Assembly (NCBI GenBank): GCA_017514975.1
Contig: JAFWIF010000014.1
Location: 52,070-116,069 of the forward strand
Reading direction: 5' to 3'
Source of the DNA: Candidatus Saccharimonadota bacterium
Lineage (GTDB): Bacteria > Patescibacteriota > Saccharimonadia > Saccharimonadales > Saccharimonadaceae
DNA length: 64,000 bases
Position numbers and translations under genes: made by a program. Shown here piece after piece: positions 12,803 to 63,525 of the stretch. Each line of letters begins with the position of its first letter. The stretch's first letter is position 1. The notes beneath the pieces were generated by a model, which made no database searches, was not told the origin of the DNA, and saw only the letters and a program-made list of their open reading frames with translations.

Positions 12803-15800
12803 CTACTGAGCGACGCAGCGGACGGAGAGGCCGTCAGCCCTGTGACCGTAGAAGTTTCGGGGGCCGACGTTGCTACTGCCGAAGTACAGGCTGGGGGCGT
12901 AGCTCGTACCATTTGCGGTAGAAGACCAGAAGAAGCCTTGGCTGCCCTGATAGTACTGCGAGCCAGTGTAGTAGTAGTAGCCTGAGAAGGGGAAGCTAAA
13001 CGGAACGTTTTGCATTGTCGTGCTGCCAGTACTTCCGTTTAAGGCGTAGGTCGTCGTCAGTAGATTGTAGTAGCTCTTCGTTCCTGTATTACTTGGTAGT
13101 TGCCAGCCCTTCGGACATATCGACTGGTCAGCCTCCTCGCCGCTTCCCATTGTCGCTAGCCCTGTTCCTGCCGTTGCCGTATACCAGTTGTAAAGGTTGC
13201 CATAGGTCGTAGCTCTATCCGCGTAAGTTGCATGTTGCGAGAAATCATACATATGCTTGATGTTGGTCGTGTTGCTAGAACCACCTTCATTCCACGCAGC
13301 TCCTGCTTTAGTTTGCGCTGCTGGCATCGTAAAGTTTTGGCTGACGTTTGAATCTTGTGGGGTGAGAACGAGCGGATTCGCTTCGGTAGAATTGTCTCCA
13401 AGGTCGAGGTTTTGCGTCATCCAGCAGTTTCCATCGGCAAGTTTGGAGACAGTGTAGCTTTTGTTGTCGCGGGGGTCGAGAAGAGTGGCGGTGGGAACAA
13501 GGGAAGCGTCCGTAGAGTGCGTGGTTGTAGTGGTACGAGCGGAGACCGAGGGGGTGGTTTCGGCAGCACAGATGGCCGAAGTCATCTCTTGCATGGTCGT
13601 AATGCCGCCAAAAGTCGGGCCGCGTGGAGTCCATGATTCACCTTGCATGGTTTTTTCGACGGTGAGTTTTTCCCAGGTCGGATAGAGCGTAACGTCCGCA
13701 GAAGGCATAATGAAGGAGTCGTTGTTAATGGTGAGATCGGTCGGCGATACGACATGCCAGCCAGCGAAGACATAGTCGGCGCCGACGCAGGTCGGAGTTT
13801 TTTCGATAGTAACAGTCGTGCCGACGACGTAATGGTTGCCACTTGGCATGTTGGCAATACTAGTACAGGCGTCTGAAGAGGAAATGGTGCCAAAGACTAC
13901 ACCTTTTAGAGAGAAGGAGGGAGGGAGAGCGTTACTTGGAGTGACGAGCTTCGTGGCGGCAAAACCAAAACCAGCGAGAAAAGAGAGCGCGAGAAGGCGA
14001 AAAATAAATTTGCGAGTTTTGTTTGCGGCGAAAGAGGTTTTCTTCGAGCAAGACGCAATAGAGATGGGATTTACTATTCGCTTCGGAGCGAAACGGGAGC
14101 GACGCAAGCTTTTCAAGTGACTCATCGCGAGCTTGGTCCACGAAAACTTCTTGGCGAAAAGGAAGAAAGAAAGGACAGCGCCAGCAAGGAGGCCGGAAGC
14201 GATGAAGGGGAAAATGTTAGTAAAAGCAGCGGTTGGTGGGGTGCTGTTTTTTGACCAAGTGGCGACGATTTGGTTATTTTCCTTATAGGCGGACGCTTGG
14301 GCGTCGGTAGCAGAGCTGCCATAATCGAGGACAGCGGTGCGCTGATCGGTAACAGCAGAAGTGTAATCTTGGGGCACGACGACAGTAAAGAGATTGGCGA
14401 CTCTACCACTACCGTCAACAGGAGAAACAGCGTAACTTGCATCAGATGCGGACATATTAATCGTGTATTTTGTATCAGTGGAGATATTGGAGAGAGTGAG
14501 TTGTTGGTTGTGCTTTAGGTAGACCATACAGATGCGCCCGTAAGTACAGGTGGTGGGGTTTACGAAAGAAATGTTCCCGTTCCCGTAGCGAATACTGCCC
14601 TGGTCAAGACCAGAAAGCGCATAGGTTTCACCTTCGATGCCGTCACTAAAGTCGAAGATATAACGAAAATATTCGGAGGTGTTAGCGAGGTCGCCTTGGA
14701 CGAGGCTTTTTAAGGTCAGAGTGGTCTTTGGCGGATCGGAGAATTTGATTTTTACGACAACATTGCCGCTCGGCATAACGAAAGAACCATTGCTGGTGGC
14801 GGAGTTGCCCTCAACGGTGGCACCTTGGACGGTGTAGCTGAGGAGTCGGTAGCCGTCGAACGTTGATTGAGGGAGAGGCGAAATGAGATTAACGATGGAT
14901 CCTGGAGCGTAGTTGGTTTCAGAAGGGAGCGCAAAGCTACTCGGCGCGCGACCGTCGAAGACATAGGAAACTTTGTAGATATCGGCTTTAGACCAGGTTC
15001 CTTCAAGAGTAAGGTTTTTTGTAGGCATAACGAGAGTGTTGTTGGAAATGGTGGCGTCAGTAGTAGTCCAGCCGTTAAAGACGTAGCCGTCGACAGGAGC
15101 GGGCGTGGGGAGCTGAACAGAGAGACCAGATTGAATGGTCTGGCTAGCGGGGAGCTTGGCGGAGACAGGGGCGTCGCCGGTATAGGAGTAATTAAGCGTA
15201 TAGTTATCCGATGAACTTTCATCGCCGATATAAGCGTGGACGGTTTCGGAGAAGAAAGTGCCGTTTTGGTTTGCGATGGTGGCGGTATTAAAGAAATCTT
15301 GGCGGCTGACGGTGGTGGGTAGAGTTGGAGTCTTGGTCTTGATTTCATATTTTACAGTACAAGTTTCGCTGAGACCGGTAAGCTTAATGGTAGCGACACG
15401 AGTCGAGGCGTCGTAGGTCTTGCTGAGGGTGCTTTGGTTAGAGCAGCCTAGAGCCTGCTCGGTACCAAAAGCGAGAAAGGTGAGACCGTCGGGGATTTTA
15501 TCAGTAACAACAACGAGTCCACTTGCGTCATTTGGATTCGAGAAAGTACCATAATCGACAGTAAGGTAGTAGTCGAGAGCAGAATTCTCCTCGAGTCGAG
15601 TACCGCTCGTAACGTCGCCGTAGGCGAAAGATTGGTTGTCTCTGGTATCTTTAAACAGAAATGCTAGAAACGAGCAGGCAAGAAGCACGAGCGAAGCAAA
15701 GACGACGCAGAAGAATTGTTTCTGCTTTTTTGTTCTTCTAAATACCCCCCCCCTAAACGGGGATTTGCTCAAGGAATTTTGCCGACGAGCTCGGCAAAAT

Positions 15801-15817
15801 AGCGAAGATAAGGACAT
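12803..15817 (-). CDS. Composite surface protein: signal anchor, InlB-B/Listeria-Bacteroides repeats, a pilin-like Ig domain, an internal TM-basic loop-TM, and a C-terminal Fibrobacter-type (FISUMP) domain
   Basis: YVFNGWTT and YVFAGWHV repeat motifs; GDLANTSEYFRYIF; C-terminal DPRDNKSYTV...YGNLYNWYTA...CPKGWQLPS...FWSST...GLSVRCV. The RBS is AAGGAG with the ATG at 15817. Confidence 0.7.
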   Translation of the reverse strand: MSLSSLFCRARRQNSLSKSPFRGGVFRRTKKQKQFFCVVFASLVLLACSFLAFLFKDTRDNQSFAYGDVTSGTRLEENSALDYYLTVDYGTFSNPNDASGLVVVTDKIPDGLTFLAFGTEQALGCSNQSTLSKTYDASTRVATIKLTGLSETCTVKYEIKTKTPTLPTTVSRQDFFNTATIANQNGTFFSETVHAYIGDESSSDNYTLNYSYTGDAPVSAKLPASQTIQSGLSVQLPTPAPVDGYVFNGWTTTDATISNNTLVMPTKNLTLEGTWSKADIYKVSYVFDGRAPSSFALPSETNYAPGSIVNLISPLPQSTFDGYRLLSYTVQGATVEGNSATSNGSFVMPSGNVVVKIKFSDPPKTTLTLKSLVQGDLANTSEYFRYIFDFSDGIEGETYALSGLDQGSIRYGNGNISFVNPTTCTYGRICMVYLKHNQQLTLSNISTDTKYTINMSASDASYAVSPVDGSGRVANLFTVVVPQDYTSAVTDQRTAVLDYGSSATDAQASAYKENNQIVATWSKNSTPPTAAFTNIFPFIASGLLAGAVLSFFLFAKKFSWTKLAMSHLKSLRRSRFAPKRIVNPISIASCSKKTSFAANKTRKFIFRLLALSFLAGFGFAATKLVTPSNALPPSFSLKGVVFGTISSSDACTSIANMPSGNHYVVGTTVTIEKTPTCVGADYVFAGWHVVSPTDLTINNDSFIMPSADVTLYPTWEKLTVEKTMQGESWTPRGPTFGGITTMQEMTSAICAAETTPSVSARTTTTTHSTDASLVPTATLLDPRDNKSYTVSKLADGNCWMTQNLDLGDNSTEANPLVLTPQDSNVSQNFTMPAAQTKAGAAWNEGGSSNTTNIKHMYDFSQHATYADRATTYGNLYNWYTATAGTGLATMGSGEEADQSICPKGWQLPSNTGTKSYYNLLTTTYALNGSTGSTTMQNVPFSFPFSGYYYYTGSQYYQGSQGFFWSSTANGTSYAPSLYFGSSNVGPRNFYGHRADGLSVRCVAQ
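15745..15753 (-). repeat. G9 homopolymer (coding strand) inside the signal-peptide n-region; the frame is currently ON
   Basis: Counted directly as nine C on the plus strand. It encodes R-G-G in PFRGGVFRRTKK. Confidence 0.9.
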
Positions 15818-15867
15818 GGTGGAGACTCCTTGTTTTCGTATGTTTATTTTGACCTAATTGTATGCTT

Positions 15868-15928
15868 ATAGTAGCAAAATTCGTAGATTCCGTCAATGCT
15901 TGACTTTTTTGAATTTTTGTGCTATAAT
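15868..15928. promoter_or_regulatory. Back-to-back divergent promoters (cassette copy 1)
   Basis: Minus strand: TTGACG (15896..15891), 17 nt, TACTAT (15873..15868), then leader AGGTCAAAATAAACA (15855..15841). Plus strand: TTGACT (15900..15905), 17 nt, TATAAT (15923..15928). Confidence 0.5.
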
Positions 15929-15934
15929 GAGGAG

Positions 15935-15971
15935 ATAGTAGTGTCTTTAGATTCCTGAAGGCGCGGTTTTT
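15935..15971 (+). ncRNA. Candidate short hairpin-terminated transcript (copy 1)
   Basis: A 10-bp stem GTGTCTTTAG-ATTC-CTGAAGGCGC is followed by GGTTTTTGG, starting about 7 nt after the plus-strand TATAAT. Confidence 0.25.
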
Positions 15972-15974
15972 GGA

Positions 15975-17327
15975 TTAGGAGAGGGCGTCTTTGCGCTTTA
16001 AGAGAGTGTGGTATTGGACGGCAAAGCGATGACTTTCATCATCGATACGGGAAAGAAGTTTGGCAAGGTGGCTATCGGAGGGAAATTCGAGAAGGTGAAA
16101 TTGGTCGGGAGCGGCGAGTCGAGAGATTGGGGCTGAAATAGTTGTGGGATAGTAGATTTTGACGGGGGCGTTCTTGCCGTGGTCGCCACTTTTGTCGCGG
16201 GCAATAACGGGGATGTTTTCGGGAACGAGAAGGGGGAGGACGGCGGCAAGCTGGGCTTTGGAGCCGTCGAGGAGAATGAGATCGGGGCGACCCCAGTCGC
16301 TCAGATGACGGAGACGACGAGAAAGAACTTCGCGGAGCGATTCTGGATCGTTGTTTTGCTGTTTTTTTAGCTTGAAGCGACGATATTTAGTGCGATCGGC
16401 AACGCCATTGATAAAACATACCATTGAGCCAGTAACATTGGTGCCGGATTGGTGACTAATATCGTAACCCTCAATGCGAACGGGGGGCTGGTCGAGATTT
16501 AAGAGAGATTGAAGATCTTTTAGAGCTTGGTCGTTGGAAATGTCTAAAAATTCTTTGTCAGAAAAGACAATTTTAGTGCCGATACCTTTGATGCCAAACA
16601 GCTGATTGCGATATTTTGCTGCAAGTTCATAATCTTGATTTAGAGCCGCCTCGCGCATTAGTTTTTCTAGGTCGCGTAGTAATTTTTTGCGACTTCCCTT
16701 TAGATAAGAGACCAAACGGCGCAAGCTGCGACGATACTCGAGTGGAGTTGTTTTGCCGATTTCGATGCCTGGAGTCAAACCAAGATCAGTATCAAGAGTT
16801 TTGCGTCCGCTATAAGGGCGATCATAATACGGGAATACTTTGCGAAGAATGCGGAGAGCGCGCGTAATTGCGGTCTTGCCATAATACGGACCATAATAGT
16901 CGGCGCCGTCATCTTCTGGGTTGCGAGTAATTGTAAGATCAGGAACATCGGCTTTCATATTGATGCGAACATAGCTGACGCTTTTGTCATCACGGAGAAG
17001 AATGTTCCATTTTGGCTTGTAGCGCTTGATCATTTCGCTCTCTAAGAAAAGCGCATCCATCTCGGTATCGACTACGAGCCAATCGATGTCGGCAATTTCG
17101 GCGACGAGAGCACGCGTTTTGGGGTCTTTGCGTTCTGGGCTTTGAAAATATTGGCGAACGCGATTTCTAAGGATAGCGGCCTTGCCGACATAAATGACCT
17201 GACCAGTCGCATCTTTATGAAAGTAAACACCTGGCTCCTTAGGCAAAGCACGCAAGGTGTCGCGCAAGTGCTGAGACAAGCCACTGCGGCGGCGCCGAGG
17301 CTCGTGCGAAGTAGCGTCCGAGGACAT
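15975..17327 (-). CDS. uvrC: Excinuclease ABC subunit C, short form without the C-terminal HhH region
   Basis: GIY-YIG block (GVYFHKDATGQVIYVGKAAILRNRVRQYF), a UVR segment (YELAAKYRNQL), and an RNase H-like endonuclease region. The protein ends at 450 aa. Confidence 0.8.
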   Translation of the reverse strand: MSSDATSHEPRRRRSGLSQHLRDTLRALPKEPGVYFHKDATGQVIYVGKAAILRNRVRQYFQSPERKDPKTRALVAEIADIDWLVVDTEMDALFLESEMIKRYKPKWNILLRDDKSVSYVRINMKADVPDLTITRNPEDDGADYYGPYYGKTAITRALRILRKVFPYYDRPYSGRKTLDTDLGLTPGIEIGKTTPLEYRRSLRRLVSYLKGSRKKLLRDLEKLMREAALNQDYELAAKYRNQLFGIKGIGTKIVFSDKEFLDISNDQALKDLQSLLNLDQPPVRIEGYDISHQSGTNVTGSMVCFINGVADRTKYRRFKLKKQQNNDPESLREVLSRRLRHLSDWGRPDLILLDGSKAQLAAVLPLLVPENIPVIARDKSGDHGKNAPVKIYYPTTISAPISRLAAPDQFHLLEFPSDSHLAKLLSRIDDESHRFAVQYHTLLKRKDALS

Positions 17328-19470: not shown

Positions 19471-22224
19471 TTATTTTGATTGGCGCAATCTTTGCGCGAT
19501 CAGTACGACGCCGCCGAGACTCGTGACGGCTACAGCAATCGCGCCGAGAGCGGGCCAGGCCTTGGTTGAGACAGTGAGACCAGTTGGAGGCGGGGCGGCC
19601 TTGGTGTTCGTGAAAGCGATGGAAATATCCGAGCCTAGAGAATTTATCGTGTAGCGTCGGCCGTTGGTACTAGTTTGTCCGACTTTGTAGCTTGTTTCGT
19701 AGCCGTCAGGGGCATAATCTACTTCTTCGATTTCAATCTTTGAGCCAGCCGGGAGAGTAGTGAGCTGTTTAATATTGCGATGCTTGAGCGTGAAGGTATA
19801 ACTGCCATCGTTGTTAGAAGTAAAGCCTTCGAAATTTGAGAGGTCGACAAGGTCACCGCTTCCGCCGTCTTTGGTAACCTTTATTTTATAGGTGAAATCT
19901 TTTGAGGTGTTGGCGAGGTCGCCTTTGACGAAGTTAGAGATTTCGAGGCCGTATGAAGACTTTGAGTTGACAAAAGTGGAAGTAATGTCGCTGTCGCCGA
20001 TAACGCCATGATCGTTGGTTTTCGAGGTCAGAGTCCAGCCTGTTTTGTTTTCTTCGATAATTTCATATTCATAGCCTTGCGGAAGCTGCAAGGTCTTGGT
20101 ACCGTTTTGCGGCAAGGAGAATGAATAGTAGCCGTTCTCATCGGGCTGACCAAAGAAAGAAGAGAGGTCGTATGGTTTTCTGTAGAGTAAACTAGATACT
20201 CCCTCGTTTCCTTCCGCGCCGCACACGAGGCTTGGACTTCTCCAACCATTTGGGTTCTCATACCAATAGCCGTCATCAGAATACCACTCACCGTATCCGC
20301 CAGCGCTATACCATTTATACTCGTTGATGTTTTTGCCATTGATATTTAGATCTATGGTACGCTGTAGTCCATTGAGGTAATTCCACATATCTAAAGCTTT
20401 CTCGAAGTCATCAGAATCACGAGTCTTGCTCTCACCCCAAACCGAGCGTCTATGCCCGCTCGCGGCGTCTATTAGTCTACCGTTAATCTTGGTGGTAGCA
20501 TCCGTAAGTCTTACCGTTATATTATGAGTAGAGCCATCATCCCCTTGGGAGTAAATATATTCCTCAAAATACACACAACCATAATCAAATGCTCTAACTT
20601 TATAATTAAATTGATCGCTCGTATTTATGTCGGTTTCTTTCTTAATAGTAAGATTTTGTTTGGGTATCTCTTCGAATACAACATTAATAATATAGTCCTT
20701 TTGTATATTGCTTAGACTATATAGACGATTCGTCTCGACAGACACATCGATGCCGACTCCGTCGACGGTTAAGCTTTTTATTCTGTATCCTTCGTTGGGC
20801 CGATAATATATATTCTTTGAGGCTCCGTAGGCAACGGTCGTAGATTCGGTAATTGTGCCATTAACGGCACTCGTAGTTATGTTGTACTTTGGAACGATTA
20901 TATACGGGTCAGCCGCTGTGCCGGTGCCACCGTCGTAGGTTGTACCGGGCCTTAGAGAGATGACTGGACGTACGCCGAGCAGAGAATAGTAGCCTGCAAG
21001 GTGGGTCGCCCAATCGTTCGTCATGGCGCCGCCTGGATTAAGACTAGCAACTGATACATACCTAACGTTAGGCACAGTATAGTGGCTTGGCGACATCGAC
21101 CAATAGGGCTCGCCCGTGTCACGGGCAGTGTTATTATTTATCATACTCATCTCGCTGGCGGTCGCTAATCCTATGGGGTAAGTTAGTTTTGCTTTTGTGT
21201 TTTCGACAGAAAATTGATCGGTCAAGTTCGTACAGCTATAATCGTTTGTAATGCCCGTAAACGTAAAATATGACCAAGTTCCGTTAGGATTCCAACCGCC
21301 AGAGTTGGTATTTTTTGGAGAACGATCATTGCAATAAACAGCGTCCTCTAAAAAGGCTGTGTATCCGGTTAAGTTGTTTCTGTACCAGTTATCGACTACC
21401 GTCTTGATAGCGCTATTGTTCGTATTAACATTATCTGCATAGAGCATATCGTGAATAGCTTGCTCAATGGTCTTACCGCCACTAAGTTCGATATACCAAT
21501 CGCTTCGGTGATAGTATCTTACGGTCTCACAAGTACCAGTACCGTTATTGCAGCTATAGTGATGAGTATTGTCTATGTATACGTCAGTATCAATCAAGGT
21601 ATATACGCCATTAGAATATGCGACTCCATTGCCAGCTAAAGTTCCGCTGGCGGGCGCGCCATACTTGTCTGGATATTGAACATTATACATATAACCAGCA
21701 TTAGCCAACGATGGAGTGCTAGCATTAGATATCCAAGTTTTGTTAATAATGCCTCCATAGGGCATACTGCACGTGGCTGAAGACGTGGAGTTGCCATTAT
21801 AAAGAAGTTTTATGCCGCCAGTATCGGTCGTTCTTATCATCTGCCAACACTTGCCGGCAAACACAACATTCCATTTATCCAAAAGCTGCTTGCCCTGCGT
21901 TGTGTCGTTTTCGATTGGGGTCGTAAAGTAATAGATGTCTTTTGGGCCTGCGCCAGCTAAAGTATCGTTGTGTGCGCCAGTATATTTGGCGGCGAGACCA
22001 CCTGTTTCGGCTTCGTTTTTAATAACGTTATAGAGGAGATTTTCGGGTTCGCTTGTATTGCTTGATTCGGCATGAGAATGACGAGTTGCGAGGAGAATTG
22101 CGCCAGTGGCGACGACGAGAAGGACGGAGAAAAGCGAAAAGAAAAGAAGTTTGCGTTTTTTGGTAAAGTTGCTGCTTCTTCTATGTGATATTAACCCCCC
22201 CCCATTACGCAAAAAGATTCCCAT
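19471..22224 (-). CDS. Large surface protein: Cys-rich N-terminal domain, pilin-like Ig domains, PPTG-type C-terminal sorting signal
   Basis: Start moved to the ATG at 22224 because the track start (TTG at 22296) is the promoter -35 box. Signal anchor KKRKLLFFSLFSVLLVV; GDLANTSKDFTYKIKV; C-terminus PPPTGL plus TM plus RLRQSK. Confidence 0.7.
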   Translation of the reverse strand: MGIFLRNGGGLISHRRSSNFTKKRKLLFFSLFSVLLVVATGAILLATRHSHAESSNTSEPENLLYNVIKNEAETGGLAAKYTGAHNDTLAGAGPKDIYYFTTPIENDTTQGKQLLDKWNVVFAGKCWQMIRTTDTGGIKLLYNGNSTSSATCSMPYGGIINKTWISNASTPSLANAGYMYNVQYPDKYGAPASGTLAGNGVAYSNGVYTLIDTDVYIDNTHHYSCNNGTGTCETVRYYHRSDWYIELSGGKTIEQAIHDMLYADNVNTNNSAIKTVVDNWYRNNLTGYTAFLEDAVYCNDRSPKNTNSGGWNPNGTWSYFTFTGITNDYSCTNLTDQFSVENTKAKLTYPIGLATASEMSMINNNTARDTGEPYWSMSPSHYTVPNVRYVSVASLNPGGAMTNDWATHLAGYYSLLGVRPVISLRPGTTYDGGTGTAADPYIIVPKYNITTSAVNGTITESTTVAYGASKNIYYRPNEGYRIKSLTVDGVGIDVSVETNRLYSLSNIQKDYIINVVFEEIPKQNLTIKKETDINTSDQFNYKVRAFDYGCVYFEEYIYSQGDDGSTHNITVRLTDATTKINGRLIDAASGHRRSVWGESKTRDSDDFEKALDMWNYLNGLQRTIDLNINGKNINEYKWYSAGGYGEWYSDDGYWYENPNGWRSPSLVCGAEGNEGVSSLLYRKPYDLSSFFGQPDENGYYSFSLPQNGTKTLQLPQGYEYEIIEENKTGWTLTSKTNDHGVIGDSDITSTFVNSKSSYGLEISNFVKGDLANTSKDFTYKIKVTKDGGSGDLVDLSNFEGFTSNNDGSYTFTLKHRNIKQLTTLPAGSKIEIEEVDYAPDGYETSYKVGQTSTNGRRYTINSLGSDISIAFTNTKAAPPPTGLTVSTKAWPALGAIAVAVTSLGGVVLIAQRLRQSK
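22195..22203 (-). repeat. G9 homopolymer in the signal-peptide n-region; the frame is currently ON
   Basis: Nine C on the plus strand. It encodes GGG in MGIFLRNGGGLISH. Confidence 0.9.
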
Positions 22225-22267
22225 CTGTTTTTTCTTTCTTTGTTTATTTTGACCTAAGCTTGGTTTT

Positions 22268-22328
22268 AGGATAGCATAGAGTTTTGATTCCGTCAATGCT
22301 TGACATTTTTTAGTTTTTGTGATAGGAT
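22268..22328. promoter_or_regulatory. Back-to-back divergent promoters (cassette copy 2)
   Basis: Minus strand: TTGACG (22296..22291), 17 nt, TATCCT (22273..22268), leader AGGTCAAAATAAACA (22255..22241). Plus strand: TTGACA (22300..22305), 17 nt, TAGGAT (22323..22328). Confidence 0.5.
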
Positions 22329-22334
22329 AGAAAG

Positions 22335-22371
22335 ATGAATGCCTCGAGGCGACGAGAGGTGAGGGTTTTTT
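22335..22371 (+). ncRNA. Candidate short hairpin-terminated transcript (copy 2)
   Basis: AGAAAGATGAAT, then a GCCTC-10 nt-GAGGT stem, then GAGGGTTTTTT. Confidence 0.25.
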
Positions 22372-22421
22372 GATAGTTTGGTTGAGTTATATGCTTGGTG
22401 CGAAGAGCGTTTTTGCGGACT

Positions 22422-24940
22422 TTAAGCTTTGCGCCTAATGAGAAAGATGGCGGCGAGGAGGCCAGCAAGGCTTGAGCCGAGAATAATGAAGGGGAGCTTG
22501 AGGGCAGATTTTGAGTGATCGGAAGTTTTTGGGTTAGAGTCTAGGGATTTCGGAGTAGTAGCCTGACTGTGCTCTATAGTCGTGGTGTTTTTTGAATCTT
22601 CGGTGATTTCAGTGTTTTGTGTAGGATTGTCTACAGGTTTTTCTGCGGGGGATTGATCTTTTTGCCAGTTAGCAGTGAAAGTTTTGTCGCCAGTAGTGCC
22701 TTTGGGGATTTGAAGCTGCTTTTGAGGAGGAGAGTTTGGGTCATCAGCGTCAGTCCAGCCGAGAAAAGTGTAACCTGGGCGGGCAGGAGTAGCGAGAGTG
22801 ATAGTGTCGGATTCGATAGTGTAGACAGAAGGATTGTCGGGGGAGTTGGTGGCGGGGCTGGTTGGGCCGTCTGGGCTAGAGGAATCGTCAGGATTAGCGG
22901 GGGCGTCATTGAGATTGTAGGTGATTTGATAGTTGATGGTCTCCCAAGTTGGCGCAATGGTGAGGTTTGAGGTGACACTATCGTAGGACTTGTTCCAAGC
23001 TTTGAAGGTATAGCCGGTTTTGGTGGGGCTGACGGGAGGGGTGGCGGAGGAGCCATAGGGAATGGTTTCGGTTTTTAAGGCAGTGCTTTCGTCATCAGTG
23101 AAAGTAACGGTGAAGATACGTTTATTGGCGAGGAAAAGCTTGACCCCCTCGGTGTCGGAATTTGAGATGGTGAATTCGGGACTGATGAGAGCCTCTTGAT
23201 CCTGGTCGTAACATTGAGTAGCAGAGTTCGGGCAGGAGTCGGCGCTAGCGGAGAGAGAGTAGACGGAACTAGCGGGGGCGGTCTGGACAAGGCGATAGGT
23301 GCCAGTGCCGAGGTTTTGGAAATCTACCTGACCGTCGGAATTGGTTTGGCGAGAGAGAGGATTGCTGTCGTTTGGAGTATAATCCTGCCAAGTGATATCG
23401 TTGCCAGTTCCCTGTTTGAGCTGAAGCTTTAAGGTTGCGTTTTCGAGAAGACGCTTGGTGTCGCTATCCGAAACGAAGGCGGAGACGGAGAAAGTTGGAG
23501 GAGTAACGATAGCGCTAGGATCGATACTTTCGATAGTGACGGTACGAGTGCTTGGCTTTGATGACACGCCGTTACGGGTAATGACGGCGGTCGACTGGAA
23601 GGTGCGGTCCTCTAGAGCGGTACCATAATCGCAAGCAACGTACGCGGTGCTGTATGGGTTTTGCCCCAATGCGCTATTTTCGCCAAATGCAGAGAGGTAA
23701 GCTTGGACGAGGCGGCCGTAATCCTCGGCGTCGGCGTAGCCGTTATTGATGTGGTACTTTGCGGCCTTGTCTGCCCATGCTTCGGCGCTTTGTTGCGGAG
23801 TGTCGATCCCGACACGACCATGATAGATAATAAAAGTCATAGAATCGCCGTTATTATAGTAGCCGTATTGGCGCGGAGTCGCGGTAACTCGAGATTTAAA
23901 ATCGCTATACGATTCGTTAGATGTGGGCTTTATTTCTGTGTATTCGCCGGTGATGGTGGCATAGTTGTAGTTAGAGCTTGATAAAGTGAGGTCGTCTAGG
24001 TCGTAAACTATACGAGCAGACGCAATAATTGAGTGGATATTCATAGCGATTGCATCTTGGCAAGTAATCTCGATGTAAGTATCGGACGGCTCTGGAGAAT
24101 AGCTGTCCCCTTCAGACTCGAAAAGACTTTTTTCGATAGCGTGCGCAGTGCCATCGACGTAATAGTAGACCGCTCTGTTATTGGATTTGGTAGAGAGGTT
24201 ATAGCCGTTGTGTATAGAGAGAGGATTAAGCGTGCGTGGATTAACGAAAAAGTTGATTGAGGTTTCGGGCTGATTGTTGAGACGAATTTGAGTATAACGA
24301 AAATCGTTGTTGCCGATTGGATGGAGAGTGCTACCTGTGTTGATGTGGATATTCTGCGCGCCAGAGCGCCCAGCCATGTTTTCATTAAAGACAAAGCGGA
24401 TAAGTGGTTCGCCGTCCGGAAAGACAGTATAAGAACCGACAGTCGTGCCGGATTCGCCAATAACAGGAACGGCGCCCGAAGCGACTCGCGAGACACTGCC
24501 CTTAGTAGACTTCAGGGCGATATCTACAGTATCGTTGCCAGTGAAGGTGGCGCCGTGCTTTAGGGACAAGTCTAATACTAGGCTCAGCGCGGTAGCTTCG
24601 GAAGTATTAGACTTGACCGGATAGTCGTCGGGATTCGTGGAAGCGTTTTCGCCAAGGATAGTGCTGATTTCGCCATTGGTAGCGCCAGTTAAGGTGTAAC
24701 TTTTAAGGGTTACTTCTGCTTCGAGAGACTGAGCAGAAGTAGCCGGGGCTATTAAAGCTACGAAGGAGAAAGATAAGGTCAAAATTGAGATAATGAAGAA
24801 TGGTTGAAGTTTGCGGAGTTTGAGAAGAATGTGGGGAGTTTGGATTTTTGGCTTTCTCGAGAAGCCAGATACTATGGTGTTTAGTAGACTTTTATACCCC
24901 CCCCCATGGAGATTAATGCGGTGCGAAATAGAGAGAACAT
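22422..24940 (-). CDS. MSCRAMM-like adhesin, phase-variable and currently frameshifted (OFF) at a G9 tract
   Basis: AAGGAG plus the ATG at 24940 opens MFSLFRTALISMGGG and stops 5 codons after the tract. The large ORF 22422..24782 is in the +1 frame relative to that ATG. It contains a Cna-B/SpaA-like domain, two Listeria-Bacteroides repeats, and NPKT plus TM plus RRKA. Confidence 0.65.
24897..24905 (-). repeat. G9 homopolymer that puts the adhesin gene out of frame
   Basis: Nine C on the plus strand. There are 158 nt between the upstream ATG and the first codon of the long ORF, which is 2 mod 3, so G10 or G7 would restore the frame. Confidence 0.9.
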
Positions 24941-24992
24941 GGCGTGGAGACTCCTTTGTTTTTATTGTTTATTTTGACCTTGTTATTGTTTT

Positions 24993-25092
24993 AGAGTAGC
25001 AGAGTTCTTTGATTACGTCAATGCTTGATAATTTGTTAGATTATTTTATTATAATGGTTTTGCTTGACATTTTTGGGGTTTTGTGATACAAT
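24993..25092. promoter_or_regulatory. Divergent promoters (cassette copy 3, with a duplicated plus-strand -35 region)
   Basis: Minus strand: TTGACG (25021..25016), 17 nt, TACTCT (24998..24993), leader AGGTCAAAATAAACA (24980..24966). Plus strand: TTGACA (25064..25069), 17 nt, TACAAT (25087..25092). Confidence 0.5.
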
Positions 25093-25098
25093 AGAAGG

Positions 25099-25147
25099 AT
25101 GTAGCGCCTCGAGGGAGCGAGAGGCGTGGGGTTTTGGTGGTTTTCGG
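25099..25147 (+). ncRNA. Candidate short hairpin-terminated transcript (copy 3)
   Basis: AGAAGGATGTAG, then a CGCCTC-10 nt-GAGGCG stem, then TGGGGTTTTGGTGGTTTT. Confidence 0.3.
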
Positions 25148-25156
25148 AGGCAAAGT

Positions 25157-27451
25157 TTAGCGACGGCGTTTGATGAGTTTATAGCCGAGAATGATACAGG
25201 GAGAAGAGAACAGAGCGGTAAAGATGGGGCCGAAAGGTGAGGCGGCGATGGTTTTGGGATTATCGACGGTAGCTTCTGGGTTTTGCTGAGCAGGTGCGGG
25301 GTTTTGAGTTTCCGGAGAGTCGGTCGAGCTAGAGCTTGAGGTCAAGTCTTGGTCGGCGGGATCAGCAGGAGTATTAGGGTCGGCGTCGTCAGGATTAGTA
25401 ATTTCGCCTGGATTGACTGGATTATTGGGATTAGTTGTGTCGTCGACGGGAGCGACATCTGGGAGCGAAAGTACTGGCCATGATTTGGTTTGATTTTCGT
25501 CGATATTTTCCCACGAATCGTTGATGACCGCCTCTGATTGATCTTGGTTGGTTAGCTGAAGGTATAGGCTGATCTGGTCATTATCGAAACTGGCTCGGGG
25601 GACTGACAACTCTGTAATGACAACACCATCACTGTTCTGGTTAATGGATTTTGTGAGCGACAAGGTATTGCTCGTGATAGAATTTTTAGTCGATGTGATC
25701 GTATGGGTCTTATTGGCATCTTGTAGTTCAATGCGAACCTGATCGCCGTTTGTAAAATCTTGGTCGTAGTGCTCGATGAGAAAATAAACTTTTTCGTGAT
25801 CGACGCAAGTTTTTAGATGGGCCTGAGCCTGGCTTTTTGAGCCCACAAATAAGGATTGTTGGACGTTTGACCAGTCGGATGGGGAGCCGTCTACTACGGG
25901 AGCGCAAACGTCGACAGTGTATGAATGGTTGAGGTGGACTTTACGATAATTGATGGAGCGAGGGGAGCTGGAATTAGTGCTAGAACTGGAATCGGGATAG
26001 ACCGCAAGGAGATCGTCGGCGTCATCTAGCTCGATAGAACCCCACGAGCCACCTTCTAGGACGAGCTGGTGGCTTGACTGAGGGTCGCCAATAATGCCGG
26101 CATAGAACTTTCCTTGCGTATTATAGCTAACGACGACTTCGCCTGATGGAAATTGCTGAACGTAAGGCGCGGCACCTGGAGCGGAAAACTGACTGAAAGC
26201 TTGGGAGTCGCCGGAGTAATTGGCGCGATTGCGAGGATCGTTTATTGCAGGATTTTCGCGTAAGCTATTTTCGCGCAAATCGGCAAGACTAATCCCAGAA
26301 GCGTTCTTGAAATCATAATTTTGACTATAAGTCGAGGTCGAGATACTATAGCCGCTCGGAAGCTGATAATTATCAGTCAGAGACCACATTTCGAAAGCAT
26401 AGAGAATGCGGCCGTCGATAAGCTTGGTTGCAACTGGCATCTGGGCAGTATAATAATTGACGTCTGAATTGGCAGTTTCGCTAAAAAGCGTACCGGTATA
26501 ATGGTAGGCTAAAGCGGAGCCCTGAGTCCAAGTTTTGCCGTTGTCGCTCGAGACGATAACGCCAACAGCGCCAGTGTTGTGTTTTACTAACTCATTGCCG
26601 TTCGCGTCCTTGACGCTAGCGCGATTATTGTTAATACCATTAGAAAACGCCATGACGATTTCGTCGCCATTTAAGATAGCGTGAGGCTCCCAAGGAGTAG
26701 TATTGTCGTGATAGATAGTTTGACCAATATCGAAACTGTGGCCTGTGGGGGTGCCATCAGGATTGATTGAAGGTATTATTTCCCCGCTGTCAAAAATTAG
26801 TTTTCCGGTTGATTCGTTGAGCCGAGCGCGTTTCGCAACGAGGCCATTTAGTTCGACGTGTGTACTTAAATGATGGAATGAACGATAAGCTGCATATACA
26901 AGCAGCGAGCCATCTTTCAAAGGAAGAGCGTCGCAGTTTTGGAAGACGCGAAAATCACGGCCAACGGCATTTTCTTGTACAAGGCTTGGCGCATGGTAGG
27001 CAAAGGATTCCCAAATAATTTCTGGGGTTGTCCAGGTTTTTAGATCCTTACTGGTAGAGTATTGAATCACAGTACCGTTTGAGTTTGGGTAAATACCGGT
27101 CACGCTAGGTGATGATGGATAGTTCCCGGCGTGCCAAAATAAAATATAGGTATCGCCTAGTTTTTTTAGGCGAGGATATTGTTTGATCAGGCGTTCATTT
27201 TCGGGGGTATTATCGTATAGAGACGAGAACGGGAGATGCCCTAAAGAGCGAAAATCTGGCTCTAGATTGGCGTTAGTTGCAACCGTCGCCTTGGCTGAGG
27301 AGTCAAAATTTGAAGCAAACAAAAAACCAAGACTGCCGATAAATACAAAGACTAGAACCGCAAATATGGTTTTTGGGATTTTAGACTGGAGGGGCGTTCT
27401 TTTAGCAGACTTCCTCTTTAAAAAATCGAATTCGCCATGCAAGCATCGCAT
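25157..27451 (-). CDS. Surface-anchored BNR/Asp-box beta-propeller glycosidase (sialidase-like) with a CBM9-like module
   Basis: Asp-boxes STSKDLKTW and SSDNGKTW; C-terminal DGSPSDWSNV...HEKVYFLIEH; a P/D/T-rich linker; NPKT plus TM plus KRRR. Confidence 0.6.
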   Translation of the reverse strand: MRCLHGEFDFLKRKSAKRTPLQSKIPKTIFAVLVFVFIGSLGFLFASNFDSSAKATVATNANLEPDFRSLGHLPFSSLYDNTPENERLIKQYPRLKKLGDTYILFWHAGNYPSSPSVTGIYPNSNGTVIQYSTSKDLKTWTTPEIIWESFAYHAPSLVQENAVGRDFRVFQNCDALPLKDGSLLVYAAYRSFHHLSTHVELNGLVAKRARLNESTGKLIFDSGEIIPSINPDGTPTGHSFDIGQTIYHDNTTPWEPHAILNGDEIVMAFSNGINNNRASVKDANGNELVKHNTGAVGVIVSSDNGKTWTQGSALAYHYTGTLFSETANSDVNYYTAQMPVATKLIDGRILYAFEMWSLTDNYQLPSGYSISTSTYSQNYDFKNASGISLADLRENSLRENPAINDPRNRANYSGDSQAFSQFSAPGAAPYVQQFPSGEVVVSYNTQGKFYAGIIGDPQSSHQLVLEGGSWGSIELDDADDLLAVYPDSSSSTNSSSPRSINYRKVHLNHSYTVDVCAPVVDGSPSDWSNVQQSLFVGSKSQAQAHLKTCVDHEKVYFLIEHYDQDFTNGDQVRIELQDANKTHTITSTKNSITSNTLSLTKSINQNSDGVVITELSVPRASFDNDQISLYLQLTNQDQSEAVINDSWENIDENQTKSWPVLSLPDVAPVDDTTNPNNPVNPGEITNPDDADPNTPADPADQDLTSSSSSTDSPETQNPAPAQQNPEATVDNPKTIAASPFGPIFTALFSSPCIILGYKLIKRRR

Positions 27452-27504
27452 CGTTCTGTCCTTTTTTGATTCTTTGATGTTTATTTTGACCTTGTTATTG
27501 TTTT

Positions 27505-27533
27505 AGAGTAGCAGATTTTGAGGATTTCGTCAA
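27505..27533 (-). promoter_or_regulatory. Cassette copy 4 promoter (unidirectional)
   Basis: TTGACG (27533..27528), 17 nt, TACTCT (27510..27505), leader AGGTCAAAATAAACA (27492..27478). The TGA stop of the upstream 1622-aa gene lies inside the -35 box. Confidence 0.5.
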
Positions 27534-30500
27534 TGCTTATTTTTAGCAAATACTTTACTGGAAACATAGATTGCGCATAGAGTAAATGCGCCGAACGCAG
27601 CAAGCAAGATGAGCGGTTTTTGATCTAAGGATACGCCAGTTATAACGGTCTCACCTTTATTGTTTATATATGTAACGCTTTGGTCTTCTTCTAATGGCTG
27701 TTTGGTGATAGTATTTCCCGTCGTAGTATCCCTAATAACACCGCCAGCCGTCTTGGCGATCTGATAACTCTCAGTGTATTCGGTGTCCGTTTCTACGATT
27801 GTGTATTTATAACCTCTGACGATATTTTTTATAGTCGCCGCTTCGTTGTGTTTGAGCTTGATAGTTGAGCCGTTATCGATTTCGGAAGACGAGCCATTTT
27901 TTTCTACGGTAAGCTTTCCTTCTAAAGGAGTATCATCGTCGTAAACAGTAATGCGATATTCAAATTCCCTATTAACGTCTGCCAAGCTACCGGTCACTTT
28001 CTTTTTGATAGTTAAATTATGTTTTATTTTTTCGTTTTGAATGTTTAAGGCGACTTCTTTTGTGGTGTTATTTCTCGCAATCACTACGGTTTTGTCCTCT
28101 ATCGATTGGTAATTTGCGGGAACTGCTTCGTGGAGAATATAGCTTCCTGCGGGAAGGTGCTCAAATTTAGCTTGCCCTAAGGTATCGGTATTTTTAGTGA
28201 CATTAAGCTCTTCGCCTAAATCGGAAGTTCCAGACAAAGTAAAGCTTACTCCAGACATCGCCTCACTGGTGTCTTTGTCCGTTTTATTAATCGTTAAATC
28301 ACCGTACGCTTTTGTGTTTGTTCTGGCCTCTTCTATGATGGGCATATAGTCGACTGATATAGAGTGGTTTTTGTGGACATCGTCAAAGACTACTCTGACC
28401 TTCTTAGGATTAACGCTGTCTTTGGTAAAGGTATATGTCTTGCCGCCAAAGACATAAGTAGCTACGCCGTCGCTAAACGATAGATTTTTAAACATTACGG
28501 TAATTCCATCAATTGTGATTTTTTCGATCTCCCAACCGTCGTCCGGTACCATAGCTAAGGTGTTTGAGTCGCCTATACCCATAGACACATCGCGCCGAAT
28601 TGGGCTCATTGAGCAATTGTCGAGATAATCATAGGCTTCGATATATAAATCGCCGCCAGTACCATGCGCCTGTTGAAGCCGAACGTAAACCGACGAATCG
28701 AACAAAGTTGTGCCGACGTTTCTAAGGTCATTTACCGTTGAACTACCAGTCCACCTTAGCGTAGAGCCTTTGGAGTCTAGAAGAACGGCAAACCCAGTAT
28801 CAAACGTACCGTTGTCAGCTCTTTTGGTGGTATATCTTTTTCCGCTTCGAGCAGCATAAGCGGTAGCATCTTGAATGGTTGAAAAACCGTTTGAGTTGTT
28901 ATTGGTTCCACCTATTTTTTTGCCAGCTTCGTCTCTCGTGCTGTGGTATGTAAAAGCGCTAAAGCGTATGCCGTCAGCATTTGATCCGTTAAACCTTCTC
29001 TCTGCATCGATCGCCATATCGCGCCCAAATACATAACCCTCGTAAATACTGCCAGTCATGCTTGCGTGGTCATACTTTGGAATTACGGCGAAACTTTTAG
29101 AACCAGATACAATCTCCATGCCCTCTGCATATTCGATGCCACCAGATCTCCTTCCCCAAACATTTTCGGCGCTTGCCAAATCTAAATCTTTAGCGGAATA
29201 CGAGATAATACCATCGACGGGATTATTGTTTTTATCTACCACCTGGATAGTAAATGTCTTAGAATTTCCTATGGCGTTGCGCATCTTGAACGTACCGTTC
29301 GCGGAATCAGTGTTTTTGTTGCTAGCGCTTGGGCTAAAAACGTACTGAGGCCATCTCATGGTTTCTCTACCGCCATTGTTAAACTCTATCTGAATGCTGC
29401 TGTTGAGGCTATTCGCATTTTCTTGGACGACATAGGGGACATTTTCGAGTTTATCAGTCGCCGATTCCATGGTCATTTCGTTAACCGTAAACACTACATC
29501 TCCGATTGACCCATCCGGCAATACGGCAGCATCATAATAAACAATCTGATAAATATATCCGTCTACGTCGTTGGTGATAACATTTTGTCCAGCATGTTCG
29601 CCAGTCTTATAATATGAGACTTTGGTGTTTCCATATTCTACTACGCTATCGTCGTTGTGCTCGGCGTCCGTAGTCGCGGTATCACCGTTGTTGATTAGCG
29701 CCGCATAGCCCTCGTCTGTTAACTGGCCAAATTCAGGAGTACCATATGCTCCTGGAGCGCCCACGCCTTTTATGTACGATTTTAATGACCCTAAATACGC
29801 AATCATACCATTATCGTCTGCGCGGCCCGTATATATATCGTCAGAAATCTTAGCTCCATCGACCCCGATTTCGCTATCGCCTTTTTTAACTAAATGGAAG
29901 GGGCTATTTTCTGGAAAAATGAGCGAGGCATTATTGAATTTGATTTTATTGCTGTTAATAAATACGTTTCCATACGGAAGAATTTTGGCAAAATCGTTAG
30001 GGTCAGAATCTAGATCTGTATGCGGTGGGCTGTTTTCTTGGATGGACGATTTTGCGTTCCCTCCAATATATAAGCCGCCATCAAGCTTTTTCTCATAATA
30101 GCTCTTGATAGTAGAATATGTCCCACTGTCGCTATCGTAATCATAGTATACATAATTTTCGTTGTTGTTATAGACTGCGCAAGCATCTTGGTTAGTTACG
30201 GTAGAGGAGCCCTCGTCTAGCGAAGAGCCGGTTGCATTAAAATTGACATCGTAGACCACGTCATCGAGTTCGTACCCAGACGGAGCTTCAATTTCTTGGT
30301 AATGATAGGCGCCAAGAGGTAAATCTTTAATCGTGTACTCACCGTTACCGTCAGTAGTAAACTCTGACTCTACCGACTGTCCGTCTAGCGTTTCTCCCCA
30401 GAAACGATATTTGGCGTTAGGGAGGAGAGTGTTATCGGTCGCGTCGCGTTTAGTTAATTTTAAGCTTCCTTTGGCCAAGTTATCTTCCATAACAACGGCA

Positions 30501-32398: not shown

Positions 32399-32584
32399 AT
32401 ACAACTACCTCCTATTCCCTATGGTACTCTAAAAGTAACCATATCCTTTTAGATATTTTAGCACAGCAAGCGAATAGCACGCAAGTTGAAGTTGCGAAGA
32501 ACGGGCATATGAGCAGCTATGCGCATACTCTGGGCGCAAGAATTTTGCATTTTTTGAAGTTTTGCGGTATATTAGGTTATGATT

Positions 32585-41450: not shown

Positions 41451-42131
41451 ATGGATCAACTAATCTTCGTAGATAAGCCTGCTGGTATGTCTAGCTTCGG
41501 TGCGGTTGCTCGCGTTCGGCGCATTTTATCCGAAAAGGCCGGCAAAAAGGTCAAAGTCGGCCATACCGGCACGCTTGACCCCTTTGCGACTGGTCTCCTT
41601 ATCCTTCTTGCTGGTAAGGCGACGAAGCGTGCTCCCGAATTTCTAAAACTCGACAAAGTCTACGAGGCCACAATCTATCTCGGTAAGAGCTCTACTACTG
41701 GCGACCCTGAAGGCGAAATTACTTCAACCGCCCCCAACGCCGAGGCCGGTAGCGATTCTGCTTTAGTCTCAAATATCTCAAAGCAGCATATTCTCGACAC
41801 GCTCCAATCTTTTACTGGCAAAATCACTCAAACTCCCCCCATTTTTTCCGCTATCAAAATTAACGGCGAGCGCGCCTATCGCCTTGCCAGAAAAGGCGAG
41901 AAAGTCGCAATACCTACTCGTGAGGTTGAAGTTTACTCGATTGAACTTCTTGACTTTTCTCTGCCGTTAATCAAAATCCGTACCCATGTCGGCTCTGGTA
42001 CTTATATTCGTTCTCTCGCTGTTGATATCGGAAAAGCCCTCGGCTGCGGAGCTTATCTGACCGCGCTCCGTCGTACCAAAATTGCTGATTACGACCTCGC
42101 CGACCTCCCCCTCTTTCCGCTCCCCGAATAA
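41451..42131 (+). CDS. truB: tRNA pseudouridine(55) synthase TruB (short form)
   Basis: KPAGMSSF and VGHTGTLDPFATGLL catalytic motif. Confidence 0.85.
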   Translation: MDQLIFVDKPAGMSSFGAVARVRRILSEKAGKKVKVGHTGTLDPFATGLLILLAGKATKRAPEFLKLDKVYEATIYLGKSSTTGDPEGEITSTAPNAEAGSDSALVSNISKQHILDTLQSFTGKITQTPPIFSAIKINGERAYRLARKGEKVAIPTREVEVYSIELLDFSLPLIKIRTHVGSGTYIRSLAVDIGKALGCGAYLTALRRTKIADYDLADLPLFPLPE

Positions 42132-42139
42132 TCTATAAG

Positions 42140-42181
42140 CCAACCAAAACTCTGCGTCTTCAGAGTCTGAAGGCGCTACAT
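42140..42181 (-). ncRNA. Candidate short hairpin-terminated transcript (copy 4)
   Basis: The minus strand reads AGAAGTATGTAG-GCGCCTTCAG-ACT-CTGAAGACGC-AGAGTTTTGGTTGG and starts about 7 nt after the minus-strand TATAAT. Confidence 0.3.
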
Positions 42182-42187
42182 ACTTCT

Positions 42188-42248
42188 ATTATAGCACAAA
42201 ATCTAAAAAATATCAAGCATTGACGGTATCCTCAAAAACTGCTTAAAT
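42188..42248. promoter_or_regulatory. Back-to-back divergent promoters (cassette copy 6, plus-strand gene)
   Basis: Plus strand: TTGACG (42220..42225), 17 nt, TTAAAT (42243..42248), leader AGGTCAAAATAAA (42260..42272). Minus strand: TTGATA (42216..42211), 17 nt, TATAAT (42193..42188). Confidence 0.5.
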
Positions 42249-63009: not shown

Positions 63010-63060
63010 TTAATACAGAACACCGCTTAATGGCGCAACCTCTAAAGAAACGGGGTTATT

Positions 63061-63525
63061 ATGGCAAAACGCCACCCATTCAAGAAAGTAAAACCCGGCG
63101 AACCGATACCGGTTACCGCTCGTGAGCTCGAAAGTTTCATGCTCGAACATAACGGCAGATTCAATTCGCGCGATTACGACAAGTTCGAACGTATGGAGCT
63201 AATGGAGTCGCCCGTCCGCGACGCAATCCACGAATTAAAGACTTATTCCCTAGAAACACTAGCACAGCGCTTTGATATACGCCTTTTTGGGCGCGGTAAG
63301 CGCGTTTTTGCAAGGTTAGATGCCGAAGACGACAAATGGTACTACTTTTCCCTCGCATACATTCCACGCGCGCTAAACAACCGCGACGTGAATGACGCGA
63401 TGGTTCAGATGTTTTTCATAGGTAAGTGGCGCGTTTGCAAGCTTTCGCTCTGGGCCGAGCCGGAAGATATTAACCATTACGGCGACGATTCTAACAAAAC
63501 ATTCTATCATTTAGTCAATAGATAG
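63061..63525 (+). CDS. Hypothetical protein (154 aa) downstream of the KAP NTPase
   Basis: The ORF shows coding-like composition. I recognised no motif. Confidence 0.4.
   Translation: MAKRHPFKKVKPGEPIPVTARELESFMLEHNGRFNSRDYDKFERMELMESPVRDAIHELKTYSLETLAQRFDIRLFGRGKRVFARLDAEDDKWYYFSLAYIPRALNNRDVNDAMVQMFFIGKWRVCKLSLWAEPEDINHYGDDSNKTFYHLVNR

Follow-up and report, generated by a model that had tools for sequence, protein, structure and literature searches.

Does a run of nine guanines near the start of a large surface-protein gene let an uncultured rumen Saccharibacterium switch that gene on and off? The question is raised by a 64-kb stretch of its genome (hereafter the window, on whose whole length all positions are counted), where the minus strand encodes a protein of 1004 amino acids (aa) whose signal-peptide n-region contains a G9 homopolymer (gene 1, 12803..15817), and where two further G9 runs lie at the beginning of the genes with their ATG at 22224 (gene 2) and at 24940 (gene 3). 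We put at roughly 0.65 the probability that the gene 1 run is a simple-sequence contingency locus, at which slipped-strand events turn translation ON and OFF.

Predicted reading-frame control by the G9 tracts

The initial annotation had placed nine in-frame G in the n-region of the gene 1 signal peptide, ahead of a basic stretch and of the hydrophobic core, and this is indeed what the locus holds: the plus strand reads C9 at the site (table 1), the context is TCC CCG TTT AGG GGG GGG GTA (S-P-F-R-G-G-V) with the run beginning at position 2 of codon 22, and both RRTKKQKQ and the core (aa 33-57) lie downstream. The effect of tract length was computed by rebuilding the genes with runs of 6-12 G and translating them. 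In this simulated translation, the products are 1003, 1004, and 1005 aa long at the in-frame lengths G6, G9, and G12, when G10 and G7 leave only 26 and 25 aa, the reading ending in GGGI followed by a stop, in agreement with the immediate stop that had been predicted for G10. G8 and G11 give 50 and 51 aa; the frame arithmetic of the annotation for G8 was right, but the stop comes 26 codons past the tract instead of about 30. The first in-frame start 3' of the tract is a GTG at codon 44, and because this start sits in the middle of the hydrophobic core, an out-of-frame tract amounts to a true OFF state.

These observations can be set against the features by which contingency loci are recognized. 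The repeat is a G9, where over-represented runs of about seven or more G/C are expected; it lies in the 5' coding part of the gene, where a change of one unit abolishes the full-length product; and the product has the makeup of a surface protein, with a signal or anchor sequence, Flg_new/InlB B-repeats, DUF7601, an anchor to wall or membrane of the type found at C-termini, and a FISUMP module.

The suggestion that the tract is no chance occurrence is strongly backed by the distribution of run lengths. Over the 64 kb, G/C runs of lengths 1-6 number 18399, 3976, 509, 122, 34, and 3, runs of 7 or 8 are absent, and runs of 9 are again found three times. A first-order Markov model of the window expects 0.02 runs of at least 9 where 3 are observed; models of order 3 and 5, whose expectations are inflated by the tracts themselves, expect 0.23-0.62. 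All three G9 runs are G on the coding strand, 21-64 nucleotides (nt) past the best start codon and 5' of the hydrophobic core, and each lies at most 25 codons from the start of a surface-protein gene, even though GGG is the rarest Gly codon (9%) and the coding strand is G-poor around the tracts. The tracts are thus not chance features. Tandem Repeats Finder reported no further notable simple repeats in the window.

The other two tracts differ in their present state, that of gene 2 being in frame and that of gene 3 out of frame. The frame of gene 3 is broken at the tract only, its 786-codon body carrying no other lesion, and with G10 or G7 the 12 N-terminal codons would read on into the intact open reading frame (ORF) at 22422-24782, for a product of 839 or 838 aa; judged from the sequence, this is how a switched-off contingency gene would be expected to look. 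The three tracts are uninterrupted and of equal length in spite of substitutions and indels in their flanks, among which is an indel of 29 nt that sets genes 1 and 3 apart. Moreover, the first G of the run occupies codon position 2 in gene 1, position 1 in gene 2, and position 3 in gene 3, and the peptides read from it are R-G-G-V, N-G-G-G-L, and M-G-G-G-I, respectively. Because the codon phase differs in each gene, it is the DNA run that is conserved and not a Gly motif, and a conserved Gly-Gly-Gly peptide was rejected on the same ground. A role as G-quadruplex was also set aside by inference, since one lone G-run cannot make an intramolecular quadruplex.

The tract had been regarded as a maintained feature of a paralog family. 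One half of this claim stands, in that there is a set of three tracts with common upstream sequence; the other does not, as protein-level paralogy of the three genes was rejected, BLASTP giving only scattered short matches in repeat domains (Flg_new, DUF7601).

If the gene 1 tract is a contingency locus, slipped-strand mispairing on nine identical bases during replication would occasionally produce daughter chromosomes with G8 or G10. As the tract comes after the start codon and before the part of the signal that targets the membrane, translation would stop after 26 residues in the +1 state and after 50 in the -1 state, and there would be no usable start before the hydrophobic core, so that the OFF state would mean no 1004-aa protein, until a second slip restores the frame. 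Gene 1 is currently ON, with gene 2 ON and gene 3 OFF in its neighborhood, all of them on copies of one promoter/leader cassette. With three such switches, a population could contain as many as eight different sets of the three large wall-anchored proteins, which may be useful to an epibiont for attachment to host cells or for escape from phages or host defences.

Tract length across assemblies and rival explanations

The same-species sequences that could be compared were an ENA ruminant-gut scaffold (XIEF21-1_SAMN15830024 scaffold_118), two Logan contigs that both come from run SRR31077494 (L002, reported from 4 samples and covering tract 1, and L007, covering tracts 3 and 2), and the NCBI proteins of the metagenome-assembled genome (MAG). 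These are consensus assemblies from few samples, not all of them independent, in which minority length variants are invisible. Several of the results obtained from them, and from wider searches, weigh against switching. Every same-species assembly found (the ENA scaffold, L002, and L007) has G9 at each tract that it covers, and the NCBI MAG proteins agree with the products of the G9 state; the length differences between samples of one species that mark known contingency loci were accordingly not seen, all consensus assemblies being G9/G9/G9. An exact look-up in a collection of 15 billion proteins returned none of the predicted G6, G7, G10, and G12 products and not the 961-aa OFF-state ORF either. 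There are no orthologues of gene 1 in which the tract could be compared. Gene 3 is OFF in every sample, a state that would also fit a young pseudogene. Finally, since the similar first codons of these genes point to a common ancestry of the 5' module, the three tracts probably descend from a single ancestral 5' module and would not, then, represent three independent origins.

The pool of comparable sequences is small: at 90% identity, the protein clusters of genes 1 and 3 have one member each, that of gene 2 has two members differing in their called start alone (917 and 941 aa), and two collection-wide scans with the cassette pattern brought no additional strains. The uniform G9/G9/G9 is an absence of support for switching and not a refutation of it, because a minority variant does not show in a consensus assembly and the number of samples is small.

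Variation in tract length was found in another organism. A HMMER search with gene 2 led to P0141, a Flg_new/Gly_rich_2 protein of 1814 aa that shares 45% identity with gene 2 across the stretches that match (the best being aa 63-446) and whose N-terminus, MRTNVRSGGGVLLNKK, resembles the N-termini in the window. Its gene belongs to a bacterium of 30% GC, one of the three contigs concerned coming from a human Hadza/Nepal gut sample, and has a G11 in the signal-peptide n-region (L019, 6021-6031) that is the sole G/C run of at least 6 in 17 kb. When three strains are aligned (L019, L020, and L021), the tract reads G11, G10, and G9 between flanks that are about 94% identical, and the N-termini of the 15 members of the 90% cluster of P0141 differ exactly at the tract (..SGGGV, ..FGGGV, ..TRGGV, MYARGGV). 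Poly-G runs in the n-region of such surface proteins do vary in nature. The support that this lends to a switch in gene 1 would be indirect, by analogy, P0141 being encoded by a domain-sharing surface gene and not by an orthologue of gene 1; it also raises the idea that InlB-B-repeat surface proteins may commonly carry such a device, given this human-gut example of G9/G10/G11. It can be mentioned that for 7 of the 15 cluster members the start is called at a TTG immediately 3' of the tract, and that the G-run, 5-7 nt before this TTG, could serve as a Shine-Dalgarno-like element.

How, then, could three intact G9 runs persist if they did not slip? They could be an inherited relic of a duplicated 5' module, tolerated in a loosely constrained n-region and stable, with gene 3 as a recent frameshift pseudogene. 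Such a relic would agree with the shared ancestry of the three 5' regions (seen in the cassette and in SLF(C)R / IFLR as their first codons), with the same G9/G9/G9 and a gene 3 that is OFF throughout in every assembly found, and with the existence of two other cassette genes that lack a tract, so that the tract is dispensable for the module. However, a G9 under no selection should be broken or shortened at about the rate at which the flanks diverge, when all three are intact and of the same length; the use of a rare codon and the different codon phase in each gene argue for a constraint at the DNA level; and the equivalent tract in the organism of the P0141 gene does vary in length. A G9 is moreover within the range of lengths that are unstable in known systems. 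We hold a stable relic to be unlikely.

Alternatively, it might be in transcription or translation that the tracts are decoded, with slippage of RNA polymerase or frameshifting of ribosomes giving a fixed product mix in which gene 3 is partly expressed and genes 1 and 2 are partly truncated. No stimulatory hairpin or frameshift signal came to light, though no search was directed at one. Documented productive transcriptional slippage occurs mostly on A/T runs of 9 or more. The phenomenon as such is a known one, cited in a study of Bifidobacterium (PMC9187656), and it would account for a tract length that is constant across assemblies while one gene is out of frame yet intact, but the authors of that study ascribe the G-tract length changes and the pilus expression of B. 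breve to slippage at replication (PMC9187656), and it is at the DNA level that the tract of the P0141 gene varies; this makes an RNA-level device quite improbable here. An artefact of sequencing or assembly is harder still to credit: homopolymers are error-prone on some platforms (PMC9600527) and Illumina sequencing has problems at G-tracts (PMC9187656), but the same length recurs at three loci in separate assemblies, runs, and pipelines (the ENA scaffold and the Logan contigs), the NCBI MAG proteins agree with it, and errors would not single out the 5' ends of three surface genes.

The shared cassette and the gene 1 locus

Table 1. Coordinates of the tracts and associated features in the window
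Feature	Positions	Strand	Remarks
G9 homopolymer, proposed slippage site (C9 on + strand)	15745..15753	-	codons 22-25 of the 1004-aa gene
1004-aa surface-protein ORF, in frame at G9	12803..15817	-	NCBI MBR3163933.1 'InlB B-repeat-containing protein', Candidatus Saccharibacteria bacterium
Hydrophobic core, predicted N-terminal signal or anchor sequence, about aa 35-55	15653..15715	-	hydropathy; 3' of the tract and of basic RRTKKQKQ
Second G9 tract, in frame	22195..22203	-	codons 8-10 of gene 2 (ATG 22224, 917 aa)
Third G9 tract, out of frame	24897..24905	-	codons 12-15 of gene 3 (ATG 24940)
Ribosome-binding site (RBS) context AAGGAGTCTCCAC	15819..15831	-	AGGAG 8 nt before ATG; identical in gene 3 at 24944-24956
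Conserved 5'-leader motif AGGTCAAAATAAACA	15841..15855	-	four minus-strand copies exact; the fifth, before 42299(+), has one mismatch
Sigma-70-like promoter	15868..15896	-	TTGACG, 17-nt spacer, TACTAT, extended-10 TG; -35 in palindrome GTCAAGCATTGAC
Internal transmembrane anchor, aa 535-556, PPTAA before, KKF after	14150..14215	-	end point of first-module homologues
Fib_succ_major (FISUMP) domain of the second module, aa 796-1002	12812..13432	-	Pfam

The cassette ahead of the three genes consists of an insulating hairpin, of TCAAGCATTGACGnAATC with the -35 TTGACG inside the palindrome GTCAAGCATTGAC, of a 17-nt spacer, of TGnTACTAT, and of the leader AGGTCAAAATAAACA. Genes 1 and 3 additionally have in common their RBS AAGGAGTCTCCAC and their first codons. 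The RBS context that the initial annotation had found to be shared between gene 1 and the OFF gene holds exactly as a 13-mer, but not as a 14-mer, the preceding base being C in gene 1 and A in gene 3. The cassette also precedes two genes without a tract, one for a surface protein of 764 aa (ATG 27451), the other for a secreted GH43/Flg_new/GDSL enzyme (42299, plus strand). The first codons are alike (SLFCR, SLFR, IFLR, LFRG), and the sequence suggests that the whole 5' module is of common ancestry.

Gene 2 has no obvious Shine-Dalgarno sequence. In the NCBI annotation it is MBR3163936.1, of 941 aa, read from a TTG start within the cassette's -35 region (window 22224-22296), and the ATG at 22224 (917 aa, as called by ENA and Logan) suits the layout of the promoter better. 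Gene 3 is annotated as a protein of 786 aa from an internal TTG.

Similarity between cassette copies reaches about 90 nt 5' of the -35 (window 15886-15985 for gene 1, and also 22286-22385, 25060-25160, and 42131-42230). The -35 is part of the perfect palindrome GTCAAGCATTGAC, so that TTGAC is found on the opposite strand as well. At gene 1, this opposite strand (plus strand 15900-15928) offers TTGACT, a 17-nt spacer, and TATAAT with TG, a near-consensus -10, for 11/12 matches, and some 12 nt beyond the antisense -10 follows a conserved GC hairpin with a T-run (15941-15964, then GGTTTTTGG), one pair of which shows a compensatory change from UA to CG among four cassette copies. From its sequence, the arrangement looks like a bidirectional promoter whose antisense arm would be terminated after about 45 nt, or which would yield a tiny divergent small RNA; Rfam finds four tRNAs only in the window and nothing at the leader.

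Outside the window, about 12 kb of the same genome held no more tracts and no more cassettes. A scan of 185,579 GTDB species representatives with the cassette pattern gave one match, in Pseudoteredinibacter, and since this sole match was taken as chance, the cassette is considered not found among these representatives. The same scan of metagenome contigs brought up one locus in another organism (JGI contig L005, 790-925, AAGCATTGACG ... AGGTCAAAATAAA), where the cassette precedes a small secreted protein without a tract. As the cassette occurs on its own at this locus, it is of greater age or mobility than the tracts.

The protein that would be switched is a composite one. Pfam assigns Flg_new/InlB B-repeats, DUF7601, and a C-terminal Fib_succ_major (FISUMP) domain to gene 1, and the ORF is an in-frame fusion of two modules with a junction at about 14080-14215. 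Residues 1-560 form a complete adhesin module of the wall-anchored type, resembling a sortase substrate and ending in PPTAA, a transmembrane (TM) helix, and KKF; homologues of this first module measure 610-700 aa, and several terminate at an anchor of the same kind. Past the anchor come a basic loop, a signal-like hydrophobic stretch, which we read as a probable third membrane helix, and then the FISUMP module, with neither a stop codon nor an RBS before the internal ATG. The predicted topology would put both large domains outside the cell, and because no stop codon separates the two modules, the tract would control both. Searches with the N-terminal 600 aa of gene 1 found no homologue above 35% identity, the best homologues having no tract, and a search with residues 1-610 of gene 3 in repaired form matched gene 3 alone.

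In relatives whose UvrC is 72-76% identical (L010-L014), the gene order is uvrC, a 124-aa membrane protein of the Phage_holin_4_2 family, secG, and an SBP gene. Here, gene 1 lies between uvrC and secG in place of the 124-aa gene (window 15975-12487), and BipA is also rearranged with respect to these relatives. Because of this replacement and of the rearrangement of BipA, the island of surface genes is taken to be a lineage-specific insertion. About 78 kb of the corresponding loci of the relatives contain no G/C run of at least 7.

The proteins of the island (19471-32404 and 42299-45850) end in a non-canonical motif resembling a sorting signal, a TM helix, and a basic tail, the motif being NPKT[A/S/I] in the genes at 24782, 27451, and 42299, PPTG in gene 2, and VITG in a 1624-aa SpaA/FctA protein. 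No sortase was found among the window ORFs scanned, and the relatives have one near uvrC. The low-GC end of the window (60037-63525, 37-40% GC) contains a 990-aa gene resembling the YobI-ATPase, followed in another sample (L018) by type I restriction-modification genes (N6_Mtase, Methylase_S), and is probably a defence island.

Implications and known systems

Saccharibacteria are obligate epibionts, whose attachment to host bacteria is partly understood, and in the literature we found no report of a heritable and reversible switch for their surface proteins. Should the tracts slip, a clone could hedge its bets over up to eight surface states, which would bear on host range, escape from phages, and persistence in the rumen. 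At a more general level, the parts of the 5' region, namely a terminator hairpin, a palindromic bidirectional -35, a leader, a signal-peptide n-region, and a G9 tract, can be viewed as a portable expression-and-switch module placed before unrelated surface bodies. That this module makes up a combinatorial, slippage-driven surface "phasome" in this Saccharibacterium is a tentative proposal, possible but on balance doubtful; if true, it would apparently be the first one described in Saccharibacteria or elsewhere in the Candidate Phyla Radiation (CPR)/Patescibacteria, within the literature found, and it could set which host cells the epibiont attaches to, or which phages attach to the epibiont. 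Similar n-region poly-G runs in InlB-B-repeat proteins of other gut bacteria would represent a widespread and unrecognized class of switch in gut bacteria of the monoderm type. There is also a practical side to this, as annotation pipelines mis-call such genes (gene 3 from its internal TTG, gene 2 at NCBI from a start inside its own promoter), and as metagenome consensus hides the variation.

For Saccharibacteria and other CPR bacteria, no literature report of phase variation mediated by repeats was found; a hypervariable 9-mer repeat gene of a Gracilibacterium comes nearest. Beyond these lineages, the locus can be compared with several well-known systems. The phasome of Campylobacter jejuni and Helicobacter pylori is made of many G/C runs of about 8-11 bases, with a bimodal distribution of run lengths against an AT-rich or neutral background, and these runs concentrate in surface-structure genes of small-genome, host-associated bacteria. 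The window has the same bimodal distribution, known here from 64 kb of genome only; in Campylobacter and Helicobacter, the tracts are found genome-wide in glycosylation, lipooligosaccharide, and flagellar genes, and their instability is tied to a lack of MutS/MutL. In the vlp, vsp, and vsa systems of Mycoplasma, a conserved 5' module (promoter, leader, and signal peptide) stands before divergent surface bodies and is combined with a homopolymer switch. The shared 5' module and the homopolymer are both present here, with the difference that the tract lies in the coding region, whereas the poly-A tract of vlp lies in the promoter spacer and gives a transcriptional switch of lipoproteins with repetitive bodies.

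Closer to the locus are pilC1 and pilC2 of Neisseria gonorrhoeae, which are turned ON and OFF independently of RecA by frameshifts at a homo-G tract in the region coding for the signal peptide (Jonsson et al. 1991, cited in PMC5354566). As far as that citation goes, the likeness lies in a surface adhesin gene with a homo-G tract where the signal peptide is encoded, a gene present in two paralogous copies that are switched independently, and the differences are a diderm proteobacterial bearer, an unrelated type IV pilus tip adhesin, and the fact that no shared promoter cassette is described there.

The closest of the known systems are the sortase-dependent pilus clusters of Bifidobacterium breve UCC2003 (bbr_0113 and bbr_1889), which contain an intragenic G-tract of 10-12 between the signal peptide and the LPXTG body, at which slippage in replication has been measured and acts as the switch (PMC9187656). 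As in these clusters, it is the first gene of a surface locus that bears the poly-G run (G9 here against G10-12 in B. breve), set between the stretch coding for the Sec signal and the remainder of a wall-anchored protein, and the length of the run decides whether translation goes on; the bearer is likewise a gut commensal, with adhesin and pilin domains of Gram-positive type, SpaA, FctA, and DUF7601 being found in the island. The two differ in that the B. breve tract follows the signal peptide, when that of gene 1 is inside the n-region and before the hydrophobic core, in that the former serves a pilus operon with a dedicated sortase and the latter stand-alone large adhesin-like genes, and in that length heterogeneity was measured in B. 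breve, the tract lengths here being those of consensus assemblies. In the scanned ORFs there is no sortase and no pilus operon, and the C-terminal motifs are NPKT[A/S/I], PPTG, and PPTAA instead of LPXTG; and here, in a member of the Saccharibacteria (CPR), three switches would share one promoter cassette. The switch proposed for gene 1 would be a contingency locus of a known type, in a lineage for which we found no report of one, and while gene 1 is not a member of the Bifidobacterium pilus G-tract family, it would work like it.

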